Part shown: positions 2,881 through 58,434 of the stretch, piece by piece
Numbering within the stretch: position 1 is the first letter of the stretch
How the letters are laid out: every line of letters begins with the position of its first letter
Source: Mobula hypostoma
Lineage: Eukaryota
Length of the DNA stretch: 64,000 bases
NCBI RefSeq assembly: GCF_963921235.1
Contig: NC_086108.1
Coordinates: 17,608,001-17,672,000, forward strand
Direction: 5' to 3'
The notes under the pieces: generated by a model
What the model was told of the DNA's origin: nothing
Databases searched by the model: none
The model's input: only the letters and a program-made list of their open reading frames with translations
Translations under genes and position numbers: made by a program

Positions 2881-3139
2881 ACTGAATGTTGTATGTTCCA
2901 ATAAATCTTTCCAGTTTGACTACATCTTTCCTATAACAGGATGCCTAAAACTGTTTTAATTTACTCTTTCAATAACAAATACACTGATTCCCAGGTAAGG
3001 AGAAAGGAACTTGAAGGCAATATTCCAAGTATGCTCTCTATATACTGTAGAAACCTGGTAACATGTGAGCATTGATTGCCAGGTGGTGAAGAATGGCTGC
3101 TGCTTCCTGTCAAAAGTATCATAATCAGTGGCCAGTTGG

Positions 3140-3300
3140 GAACTGACATTTCGGGCTGAAACCCTGGTCCTGGTCCTGATGTAGAGTTTCGACCCAAATT
3201 GTTAATGATTCCCTTCTCCCACAGATGCTGCTTGACCTGTTGAGTTGCTCCAGCAAGTTGTTTGCTGCTCTAGATTCCACTACCTACAGTCTCCCGTGCT
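3140..3300. repeat. Penelope-type foldback repeat copy
   Basis: catttcgggctgaaaccct...gtcctgatgtagagtttcgaccc...cccacagatgctgcttgacctgttgagttgctccagc. Confidence 0.65.
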
Positions 3301-30479: not shown

Positions 30480-31620
30480 CTGAGCTTCTCTGCAAGTTTC
30501 GCTTGGGAGGGGCAGGGGATACAGGGTGCGGAAAACCAGGGCAAAGTGGGTTTAACAGTATCGCAAAGTCGTAGGCACTTTTATCCTGGTAAAAAGGTTA
30601 TCAGCAAGTTTATCCCTTCTCTCTGTCCTGTGGTACAGGGCCAACTTCCCCACAGAGGAACAGACATGATTACCCGTGGACAGACACAAATTCCCTCTCC
30701 TAGCAAGCACACCTTCAATGGAGAGCTAATCTTACCATAAAAGGGCCGAAGGGTCCAGAAGTCCTCCATTGGTTCTGATGACTGGTGCAAATGGGAGCCA
30801 GGTGCTGACACTGAGAACTGTCCAGGAGCCACGGAGGAACCAGCTGACAGCTCTGCTGGTGAGATTCAGCCACTTCACCAGGAGGGAAGGGGTAACAGGA
30901 GGAATGGGCAGCACTGGCCGGGTAAACTCGTGTCACTTATGTCGCCTGCGCACAAAAAAATCCTAACTGCTCTGCACAGGCAGAAGAGACTAGACCAAAG
31001 GTCAGGGGCGTGTAAAGAAAATTTAAATCAAATCGCTTCTCCTCTACCTCCTCTGCCGTTCCTCAGGAAAACCAGATGATGCTCGGGGTAAAAAAAGCTG
31101 TTGACTGACAGTGTCCCTAAATCCAGGCTGTCAGTGCTGTTCATAAATCCATTAATTATCTCCACAGCCGCAAATCAAATCCCACACCTAGAACATTAAA
31201 CTCCCTATCTCTGCCGTGGTCAATTATTAAACTGTACACATGTGCTAAGTACATAAATAGCCTTGGATTTTAACTTCTCCCCACAACATTCACATTCCAA
31301 ACTCCATAATCTCCCACACCCACTACCTCCCACTCCACTTCCTTCTCTTCTTCCCCTCCCCAAACCCCCTTCGCCACAAGGCAACACATGCTAAAGTAGC
31401 TTAAACTATAAAAAGATTTGTGAGATCTTATTACATTAAGCATAATATAAATGCTCAGATCACAGGTCCCAGGGAGCTCTCAAAATGAGATTTGAGCTGG
31501 CTGAATGGCTTCAAGAGGGGGCGGGTAGGAAATGCTGCCATTATTTTTGCCCCTTACAAGGAGGTGTTTGTCTGTCTACAACCTGTTAATAGAATAGAGA
31601 AGCCGATTGCATATTTCAGC
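30480..31620. promoter_or_regulatory. Repeat-free island with clustered transcription-factor motifs (candidate distal promoter or enhancer)
   Basis: AGACCA-A-AGGTCA (DR1-like, contains NBRE AAAGGTCA) at 30992-31004, TGACTGACAG at 31102-31111, an inverted CTGTCAGT at 31128-31135, and TAAT/ATTA clusters. Confidence 0.45.
30736..30769 (-). CDS. Candidate alternative first coding exon (MEDFWTLRPFY plus 1 nt), possibly of the RXR gene
   Basis: The minus strand reads ccaATGGAGGACTTCTGGACCCTTCGGCCCTTTTATG|gtaaga. It is 34 nt, phase 1 like the RXRG exon, has an in-frame stop upstream and sits in a ~1.1-kb repeat-free island. I do not recognise the peptide. Confidence 0.4.
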
Positions 31621-31660
31621 CTATCCAGCTTCCACCAGTAGACTGCAAAAGCTATGTGAT

Positions 31661-31750
31661 CTGCTGAAGGGTCTCAGCCTGAAATGTCGACTTTACTCTT
31701 TTCCATAGATACTGCCTGGCCTGCTGAGCTCCTCCAGCAGTGTGTGTTAC
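31661..31750 (+). repeat. Penelope-type repeat with a degenerate hammerhead core
   Basis: CTGCTGA-agggtctcagcct-GAAA-tGTC-gact followed by the family arm. Confidence 0.7.
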
Positions 31751-31924
31751 GTGATTCGTCTTTCTTTCAGCAGAGCCCCCACTATTTCACCACTCCAACA
31801 ACTAATTGTACTCCCCTTTGAAAGTTGCTGTTGAATCTGCCTTTTGCCTTTTAGGCAGCCCGTTCCACATCTCGCTGTGTCAGAACGCTATCCTTACTTT
31901 CTCCTCGTCTCTTGACAATCACGC

Positions 31925-32350
31925 TGCTGGTAGAACTGCTGCCTTACCTTGGATTCTGACCTGTGTGGAGTTTGCACATTCTCCCTGCGACCATGTGGGG
32001 TTCCTCTGGGGTGCTTCGGTTTCCTCCCACATCCCAAAATCATCTGGGTTAGTGGGTTAAGTAGCCTCTGTGAGTTGCCTTAATGTGTGGAAGAATTGTA
32101 GAAACTGGGAGTTATTGAGGTGAAGGTGGGATGAATTAAAAATTTTATGAATGTAGGATTTGTGTAAAATGCTGTTGATGATCACGAAATCCAAGCAACA
32201 CACACAAAATGCTGGAGGAACTCAGCAGGCCAGGCAGCATCTATGGAAAAAAGTTAGTCGATGTTTCGGGCTGAAACCCTAGCTGTACACGAGACCATTT
32301 TGTGATCAGTGTGCTGAACAGCCTGTTTCCATGCCATATCTCTCTGACTT
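31925..32350 (+). mobile_element. HE1/V-SINE-like SINE, interrupted at ~32188-32283 by a Penelope-type repeat on the minus strand
   Basis: tgtgtggagtttgcacattctccctgcgaccatgtggggttcctctggggtgcttcggtttcctcccacatcccaaa. Confidence 0.8.
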
Positions 32351-39999: not shown

Positions 40000-40180
40000 A
40001 ATAAAAATGCTGGATCCACGCAGCAGATCAAGCAGCATCTGTGGAATGGGAAACTAGAGTTAATTCTTCAGGCTGAATTCTTTCCCATTCTGACAAAAGG
40101 TCTTTGACATGAATCAGTCATTCTGTTTCTCTTTCCACAGATGCTCCCTGACTTGCTCGGTTTTCAACTGTTTTTATTTC
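40000..40180. repeat. Old Penelope-type foldback repeat
   Basis: Inverted arms gcagcatctgtggaa / ttccacagatgctc flank ttctgacaaaaggtctttgacatgaa. Confidence 0.55.
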
Positions 40181-56685: not shown

Positions 56686-56754
56686 TGCAATGGTTGAGAC
56701 ATCCCATTCCATATCCAGCTTGAATGTGTAAGGTTGTATTTTGAATTTTGTATG

Positions 56755-57796
56755 TGTAATACCCTGGTTAAGGTTTCTACAGCTATTTTAGCAGTTTTCT
56801 GCAAAAGCAATGTGTCCTGCTAGTAAACAACAGGAATTCTGCAGATGCTGGAAATTCAAGCAACATACATCAAAGTTGCTGGTGAACGCAGCAGGCCAAG
56901 CAGCATCTATAGGAAGAGGCGCAGTCGACTGCGCCTCTTCCTATAGATGCTGCTTGGCCTGCTGCGTTCACCAGCAACTTTGATGTATGTTGTCCTGCTA
57001 GTAAGAGTGTTTTGGCTTCAGCTAAAAATAAGGAGCCATGTTGTCCAACTTAGGAATGTTGTGTCAGCCAACCAGAATTGTCTTGGGACATGTTCTAACT
57101 TTCTGCCCAGTGGGATGTGATGTAAGATTCAAAAGAGCTGGGCCTGATCAGATTTCTGAGACAGTTGGCTGGTTTGCAGTCGTTTGGTGGGAGCTGAAGA
57201 GAGAAGAGCACCAGGGAAGATGCTGCAGAATGCTGCTCAAGGGAGACGCCTCATTGTAAGAAGCTTTGTGCAGATGAATGGTCCCAAGGAGGAAGTGTCA
57301 GTCAGTGCTCCTGAGTTAGCCAGTTCATTCGAGATGGTCTTTGAGGGAAGTTCGAATTGTGGCTGATGTCTTTCACGCAGAACATGGGTTCAGTATGAGT
57401 AAAGCAACGCACTCGACTACTCCAGGACTGAGCTCCAATGTTTATTGGTTTAACTGTAATGTGTCCTTTTATCTTTCTTTTCTTTTCCTGTTCACTGTTT
57501 GATAAAGTTGAAAATGTGATAAGTATACTTTCTTCATAATTTTATGCTGGTGTACAGTCTGTCATTTCTTGGCGACTGATAATTGTGTATGGGCAGTATT
57601 TACACAGCATTCACTACAATCAATGTTCCTTAACTGGAACATCCTAATTTGCCTGCTTGGTTAATTCTAAATCATACCAACCCTAGATGTACTTTGCTTA
57701 TGAAAGGTGGCCTTCTCACCTTTGAGTCACCTCATGGTCAAGAGCAGAGCTAGCTAATGAGCTAAGTTTGTGTATGAGCCCAGTGAGAGGGTTGCA
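56755..57796. mobile_element. Solo LTR (Gypsy- or ERV-like)
   Basis: TG...CA termini (TGTAATACCC / GGGTTGCA) with an exact 4-bp TSD TATG at 56751-56754 and 57797-57800. No internal coding sequence. Confidence 0.75.
56827..56992. mobile_element. Young Penelope-type foldback insertion containing a perfect 132-bp palindrome (56861-56992)
   Basis: Two 66-bp arms are exact reverse complements centred on GTC|GAC. The direct repeat TGTCCTGCTAGTAA flanks it at 56813-56826 and 56991-57004. Confidence 0.9.
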
Positions 57797-58434
57797 TATG
57801 TGTCAGTGAAATCACCTCATTTTCTTTCCTAAACTCAAGAGGCTTTATGACCAAATCGAGATAATAGGACCACTGCGTCCCTCATATAATCAAGCAGCAT
57901 CAAAAAGTGGAAAGGAATTGTTTGACATTTTGTTTTTAGGTCTGCAGCAGGACTTCCACAGATCTTGGTTGACATGCTGAGTTCCTCTAGCAGTTTATTA
58001 TTTGCTCCAGCTTTCAGCACCTGAAGTCTCTTAAGTATCCACATTTTGTGCCTGGTCTGAATCTCTCATACAACAAATCTTCCAGCCCAGTGATAGCCTC
58101 CTGCCCCCTTACAAAGGCCTCCTGAAACCCTGGTTACACACATCGACTGGTTTACATTTATCTATTCTAACAACATTGACAAACACAATTTTCTTTTTGT
58201 AGTGTACATGACTCTGCCTAATTCTTTTATTATTGTCGAAATATCTGCTTACCACTTCTGTAATTGTTGTTTCTCTCTCCCTCTTCCTAAGCTGTGAAGT
58301 TATACTTGTAGATAAAGAGAACTGATCAGTCTTGATCTGACTGAATGATTCAGGTGCAGGGCATGATGAGAGAACAGGAATATGGTATAGTGAGAGATAG
58401 AATTTGAAGGGCTGAATATCCTCCTCCTGCTCCT

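Follow-up and report, generated by a model that had tools for sequence, protein, structure and literature searches.

The window, by which we mean the whole 64-kb stretch of DNA analysed, contains a perfect spacerless palindrome of 132 bp that is a real and young insertion of a Penelope-like element with a known architecture. We consider it probable that this locus goes back to twin-primed cDNAs, started from both target nicks and joined by the microhomology GTCGAC, a process for which a ribozyme cut would be unnecessary. Throughout, +1 is the first base 3' of the predicted cleavage triplet GUC, negative numbers lie upstream, into the ribozyme, and the natural copy L091 serves as reference for element numbering.

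As the sequence-only reading had described, the two palindromic arms (56861-56926 and 56927-56992) comprise 66 nt each and are exact reverse complements with a spacer of 0, while the runner-up among perfect spacerless palindromes of the whole window has arms of 8 nt. The left arm outruns the palindrome by 34 nt (56827-56860), and the insert as a whole consists of 100 nt in antisense and 66 nt in sense orientation, that is, of two head-to-head 3' end-pieces of the element. Its long arm (56827..56926, minus strand) covers element positions +100 to +1, matches natural copies to 100%, has an outer end of the class 'long' and is likely a cDNA primed at a distal start site. The short arm (56927..56992, plus strand) covers +1 to +66, ends at the modal short end of the family (+65/+66) and is likely a cDNA primed at a proximal start site. 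The 34-nt 'tail' (56827..56860, minus strand) is found on one arm only, in agreement with the one-long/one-short rule of the family described below and with the tail of 30-40 bp reported for other Penelope-like elements (PMC8557442; PMC11167929). At the centre lies GTCGAC (56924..56929), a 6-nt self-complementary microhomology with the predicted hammerhead cleavage site in its middle. An inverted, 5'-truncated head-to-head copy with a tail on one arm, a target-site duplication (TSD), a palindrome at the junction and joins through microhomology are all described for endonuclease-bearing Penelope-like elements in two earlier studies (Arkhipova et al., 2013, PMC3846280; Craig et al., 2021, PMC8557442).

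The insert is bracketed by two copies of the 14-bp word TGTCCTGCTAGTAA (56813-56826 and 56991-57004, both plus strand), which confirms the direct repeat noticed before. Because the last AA and the first TG of TGTCCTGCTAGTAA overlap the element ends, the target duplication is given as 12-14 bp, and the total insertion of 178 bp is composed of 164 bp of element and 14 bp of target duplication. It sits in a solo LTR (56755..57796) of 864 bp without the insertion, the ends of which read TGT...GCA and which is itself flanked by the 4-bp duplication TATG (56751-56754 and 57797-57800). Paralogues match both LTR flanks; 40 were listed, and in all 14 of those fetched the left flank continues through one target-like word into sequence resembling the right flank. 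Since paralogous LTRs have a single target word, the repeat of TGTCCTGCTAGTAA is a true target duplication. LTR copies with a single word had been named as a check on the locus; together with the TSD and the LTR ends they bear out a recent retro-insertion into a solo LTR. The insert codes for nothing, its catalytic core is absent with only GTC|GAC left, and the locus is thus unremarkable in itself, a dead by-product. A palindrome of such length could extrude a cruciform.

One might suspect a fold-back of the sequencing library or an artefact of the assembly, as no read or contig was seen across the palindrome in four sequencing runs from two samples, which are represented by short-read contigs only. 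The contigs of all four runs do contain a joint that skips the 178 nt; this does not testify to an empty allele at the locus, because paralogous LTR copies would yield the same joint. An artefact is scarcely credible, however, given the 14-bp TSD that is single in paralogues, the 34-nt asymmetry of the arms and the recurrence of this structure at 15 further loci, which have TSDs of their own.

The element family and its predicted hammerhead

The 3.48-Gb assembly containing the window has 19,542 exact matches to a 25-mer from the arm. The family copy L079:1718-3754 encodes an ORF of 679 aa (P0001) with matches to RVT_1 (E 2.5e-5) and to a C-terminal GIY-YIG domain (E 6e-4), both below the Pfam gathering score, and the same holds for L091. 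In L091 the terminal 100 nt held by the window insert are contiguous with the RT/GIY-YIG ORF, and the longest family copies recovered are 5'-truncated. This ORF, the tail on one arm and the TSD uphold the earlier assignment to a Penelope-like family. Ahead of its GIY-YIG domain P0001 carries a CX4CxxC linker (CKRNKCYTC), and a CX2-5CxxC linker between RT and EN has been assigned to Neptune/Nematis (PMC8557442). The linker thus suggests, on sequence grounds, that the family belongs to the Neptune/Nematis clade rather than to Penelope/Poseidon. The family has a linker of this type, yet shows clean 12-14-bp TSDs in non-microsatellite DNA.

About 300 nt past the ORF stop follows AGTC CTGACGA A GGGTCTCGGCCT GAAA C GTC GACT. 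Judged by sequence features, intact family copies would form the minimal type I hammerhead that had been proposed, with CUGANGA, GAAA, an NUH triplet, helix I, helix II and the palindromic 15.2-16.2. The two commonest forms of the intact core CTGACGA..GAAAC GTC^GAC account for 68 and 15 of 182 core matches, which come from fetched and partly overlapping loci. The commonest has a helix I of 4 bp, a helix II of 4-5 bp with G.U pairs and a C-G pair as helix III. Position 10.1-11.1 is G.U in the young subfamily and G-C in some other copies, while a G10.1-C11.1 pair is conserved in minimal hammerheads (PMC4209133). The core consensus that had been drawn from sibling copies in the window therefore holds in part: genomic copies elsewhere possess an intact core, whereas the window siblings are decayed and none passes the full core pattern with stems. 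Such older, decayed terminal-repeat relatives with partial cores lie at 32186-32330, 31610-31760, 3130-3280, 40000-40130 and near 2793 of the window.

A search of the window and four loci against Rfam returned no hammerhead, only sub-threshold matches to miRNA hairpins that are caused by the palindromes; this silence may be expected because helix III is missing. Folding of the ribozyme region as a monomer gave no hammerhead fold, with z-scores from 0.37 to -1.26, which is uninformative for a dimer-type motif. On the minus strand of L091:462-520, a predicted hairpin of CCUUCAGUUAG with CUGACGAAGG would compete and sequester the CUGACGA core in the monomer. In addition, one segment of the arm, 25 nt long and running from +27 to +3, is repeated in tandem at L212-L214 (G000:C1:124959126-124959271).

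Head-to-head pairs and the proposed joining of two cDNAs

The hairpin with GTC|GAC at its centre occurs at 16 loci of the fetched set, with different flanks at each. As the first DNA search used the palindrome itself as query and thus favoured the same axis, it was kept out of all frequency estimates. Inverted pairs of the family range from 127 bp up to 2.3 kb; in 663 of them the two anchors lie at most 50 nt apart, and the first 50 of these comprise two exact GTC|GAC hairpins and a third with substitutions. The hairpin is therefore one point in a continuum of inverted pairs. At the other end of the size range, near-perfect palindromes of 0.8-2.3 kb with nearly equal arms of 97-98% identity were observed at L080 521-2825, L078 4573-5749, L084 506-1499 and L085 444-1268. 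A self-propagating palindromic mini-element was also considered and rejected: the short arms stop at various positions between +53 and +69, and the 16 hairpins carry different diagnostic variants although the two arms of each one agree.

Across 188 distinct head-to-head pairs, pooled from searches directed at ends near the ribozyme, 175 combine a long and a short arm, with outer ends of at least +95 and of +50 to +80, respectively. The short outer end falls at +65 to +69 in 112 of the 175, with its mode at +65/+66, and a TSD-like repeat of 12-16 nt, a measure that may include a few element bases, flanks 161 of the 188. The tailed arm was the deeper one in 59 of the long-and-short pairs, the shallower in 73 and equal in 43; if a margin of more than 10 nt is demanded, the long arm is deeper in 51 and the short arm in 48. 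The measurement of inner ends stalled at a homopolymer in about five long pairs. Because 175 of 188 pairs are long plus short and either arm may be the deeper one, we infer two cDNAs that started from both nicks.

These counts speak against the notion, also put forward in the sequence-only reading, that a single cDNA, on arriving at the 5' end left by cleavage, turned back and served as its own template. Such self-priming has been proposed for the head-to-head palindromes of rotifer Penelope elements (PMC3846280), it would make the arms concordant, and a frequent junction at +6/+24, discussed below, could represent a cDNA hairpin in which a stem of 8 bp closes a loop of 4 nt. However, it requires the tailed arm always to be deeper, whereas the deeper arm is tail-less about as often as tailed (48 versus 51); it leaves the stop of the second arm at +65 to +69 unexplained, and a cDNA ending in CAGTC finds no partner at a loop length of zero. 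We regard fold-back of one cDNA as very improbable. The concordance itself is strong: at two diagnostic sites, both arms of a pair show the same variant in 177 of 187 and 143 of 146 cases, where fractions of 0.55 and 0.52 are expected. Both arms thus go back to a single RNA or locus or have been made alike, and gene conversion could account for the latter.

A Penelope-like protein has been found to cut and extend both strands in vitro, two internal start sites delimiting the tail, and it does not need hammerhead cleavage, uncut RNA being its main template (PMC11167929). Among 48 arms unselected for their breakpoint, 44 pass -10, two end at +1 and two at +3; therefore uncut RNA is the usual template in the genome as well. 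In the mechanism we favour, the endonuclease would nick both target strands 12-14 bp apart. On one RNA, or on two sister RNAs, reverse transcription would then begin at two points downstream of the hammerhead site, at a distance of about 100 nt for one enzyme and of about 66 nt for the other, and each enzyme would proceed on an uncut template into the ribozyme. Since both cDNAs would have the same polarity, they could anneal only at self-complementary words or at RNA stems. GTCGAC, the longest self-complementary word nearby, would be the place where they anneal, after which flaps would be trimmed and gaps filled.

A longer inverted pair might instead have been inserted first and have lost its centre later through GTCGAC, during cruciform or hairpin repair. 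The outcome would be the same sequence, long palindromes are unstable in many hosts, and same-strand internal deletions do occur in the family (7 of the 69 matches that break at +1, and others elsewhere). Yet the arms are 100% identical and thus young, the genome still contains near-perfect inverted pairs of 0.8-2.3 kb, and short joins often show inserts or asymmetric ends, as is typical of primary joining. Of the earlier proposal that the core was removed through the self-complementary GTCGAC, we accordingly retain the word as the site of joining, which fits best, while a deletion after the insertion appears rather improbable.

The palindrome axis and breakpoints at the predicted cleavage site

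The axis had been placed on the predicted cleavage site and taken for a footprint of ribozyme processing. Geometrically this is correct, as the axis lies exactly at GUC^, which is what one would expect if the hammerhead had cut the RNA and two twin-primed cDNAs had run off its 5' end at +1 to be joined blunt, in which case the axis would be a record of germ-line cleavage. Two such ends joined blunt would yield the identical sequence, and therefore this locus alone cannot decide between the two origins. The position of the axis does not show cleavage, because the control word GGCC (-10 to -13), which holds no cut site, makes as many hairpins. It forms the axis at 15 loci (24 arms), all 15 of them palindromic, while genome-wide 31 arms end in GTCGACTGC, with 16 palindromic loci among those fetched; neither arms nor loci differ significantly between the words (binomial p 0.42 and 1.0).

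The palindrome centre likely lies at the cut site because the six bases GTCGAC pair with themselves. Among 990 possible joins (50-nt gap), GTC|GAC is the only microhomology of 6 nt and the longest one, and microhomology of at least 3 nt was used in 15 of 31 insert-free joins as compared to 20 of the 990 possible (2%). Under a null conditioned on microhomology, 14 of 50 joins are compatible with a +1 end against 11.0 expected (p 0.14), with a parser that misread several older copies as inserts; a score-based junction parser lacking this null gave 18 of 50. The effect of a word varies, since CTATAG, another self-complementary hexamer, provides no axis among the first 50 of 323 pairs. In the subfamily GGTGCAG/CTCTAGG, a count by eye of the first 50 of 323 short pairs gives about 27 (for example L233-L235) that are joined at +6/~+24 via the stem GCACCTCT/AGAGATGC. 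As a hot spot, this stem junction by far exceeds the cleavage site.

The proposed histogram of breakpoints relative to GUC gave a mixed answer. In the whole genome, arms that match and then mismatch three times number 13 at +3, 21 at +2, 69 at +1, 13 at -1 and 47 at -3, where TGC comes next in 31 of the 47. All matches at +3, +2, +1 and -1 were fetched, and after removal of same-strand indels and duplications (1, 1, 7 and 4) there remained 12, 20, 62 and 9. The excess at +1 over its three neighbours is pronounced (binomial p 4e-14), and solo copies show it too, with 15 at +1 versus 1, 10 and 4 at +3, +2 and -1 (p 0.003). By hand count, 17 of the 62 ends at +1 use microhomology of 2-4 nt, 12 of them the helix-I word AGTC, while 45 are solo or share less than 2 nt with another element arm, against about 17 expected per position. 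Thus a single-base excess at +1 stands, but position -6 is about as hot: scaled numbers of microhomology-poor ends put +1 at about 2.6 times the regional mean (45 versus 17), level with -6 (about 43). The 100 ends taken from 355 between +3 and -13 include 7 microhomology-poor ones at +1, 9 at -6 and 6 at -13, with a mean of 3.6 elsewhere, and solos among them number 3 at +1 versus 3, 3 and 4 at -6, -8 and -13. Because -6, -8 and -13 rival +1 in solo or microhomology-poor ends, the neighbours +3, +2 and -1 understate the background.

At four loci (L102, L246, L251 and L264) both arms stop at +1 around 1, 3, 6 or 8 inserted bases, and no equal-end pair with an insert is listed at +3, +2 or -1 among the fetched breakpoint loci. 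Such pairs would suit cDNA ends set by cleavage. According to the centre-break model, hairpins are broken at their tip, and these four loci could likewise be perfect hairpins broken later. Many ends at +1 continue into TCT or TCTT ahead of the partner arm or the target repeat, as at L101, L114, L120, L239, L242, L247, L251, L262, L267 and L269. This may reflect brief snap-back synthesis from a free cDNA 3' end onto its own GGAAGAGG, which would again be compatible with a run-off at +1. Partner arms very often start between -26 and -37, where the hammerhead has its upstream edge (helix I 5' strand), for example at L099, L110, L112, L208 and L219, in part through AGTC or AG microhomology.

Against the run-off of two cDNAs at a cut 5' end, the conserved G10.1-C11.1 is replaced by G.U in the young subfamily, the modelled hairpin would compete with the fold in the monomer, and in Anolis no RNA-seq read is reported to end at the site (PMC11167929). 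Together with the GGCC control and the comparable numbers at -6 and -13, this makes a cleavage origin of the present axis unlikely, and the microhomology join of twin-primed cDNAs remains our preferred reading. Nevertheless, a weak cleavage signal in a minority of copies is possible. The share of arms ending at the cut site has an upper bound of roughly 1% (62 at a detection of about 0.42, plus hairpins, of 19,542). One might speculate that hammerhead cutting in the germ line has left a fossil trace in a few tenths of a percent of the family's genomic 5' ends, this hairpin perhaps among them, although we hold this to be somewhat doubtful.

Comparison with known systems

In LINE-1 twin priming, two cDNAs from both target nicks are joined by microhomology and yield an inversion within a TSD; the second primer sits at a variable internal site, which gives an inversion without duplication. 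The pairs described here resemble this process in the two nick-primed cDNAs that we propose, the microhomology join and the TSD-flanked inversion. They differ in that the second start is fixed, 34 nt from the first, and in that the same sequence is duplicated. That pairs combine a long and a short arm, with either arm the deeper one, is an argument from the genome for twin priming at the two reverse transcription start sites seen in vitro, and it speaks against the self-priming by which Penelope palindromes have been explained in print.

A close counterpart is the inverted-pLTR unit of EN+ Penelope-like elements (PMC3846280; PMC8557442), with which the locus shares the inverted truncated partner, the tail on one arm, the TSD and the microhomology. 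In contrast to these units, its arms are so short that the insert amounts to a 132-bp palindrome plus tail, and its TSD measures 12-14 bp instead of 8-10. Furthermore, self-priming had been proposed for them, while our pair counts favour two cDNAs.

Intact family copies resemble the metazoan hammerheads of Penelope-like elements (Cervera and De la Pena, 2014, PMC4209133) in CUGANGA, GAAA and GUC and also in the extra base before helix II, the 4-bp helix I and the palindromic minimal helix III. They depart from them by the G.U in place of G10.1-C11.1 in the young subfamily, and the window insert does so by its missing core. A possible cutting by Penelope hammerheads in vivo (PMC4209133; PMC11167929) could be tested at base resolution with the about 20,000 young copies of this genome; a breakpoint table of such hammerhead ends was not found in the literature searched outside subscription journals. 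If the cleavage signal were true, the peak at +1 and the four loci with both arms at +1 would be in vivo evidence of a ribozyme firing during transposition, readable from an assembly alone.

Another close counterpart is Poseidon of Anolis (PAc; Frangieh et al., 2024, PMC11167929), which has two start sites, cuts and extends both strands, carries a hammerhead just upstream and uses an uncut template, all of which fits the present family. Unlike PAc, the family possesses a CX4CxxC linker and a hammerhead about 300 nt past the ORF stop, and the evidence offered here is genomic where that for PAc is biochemical.
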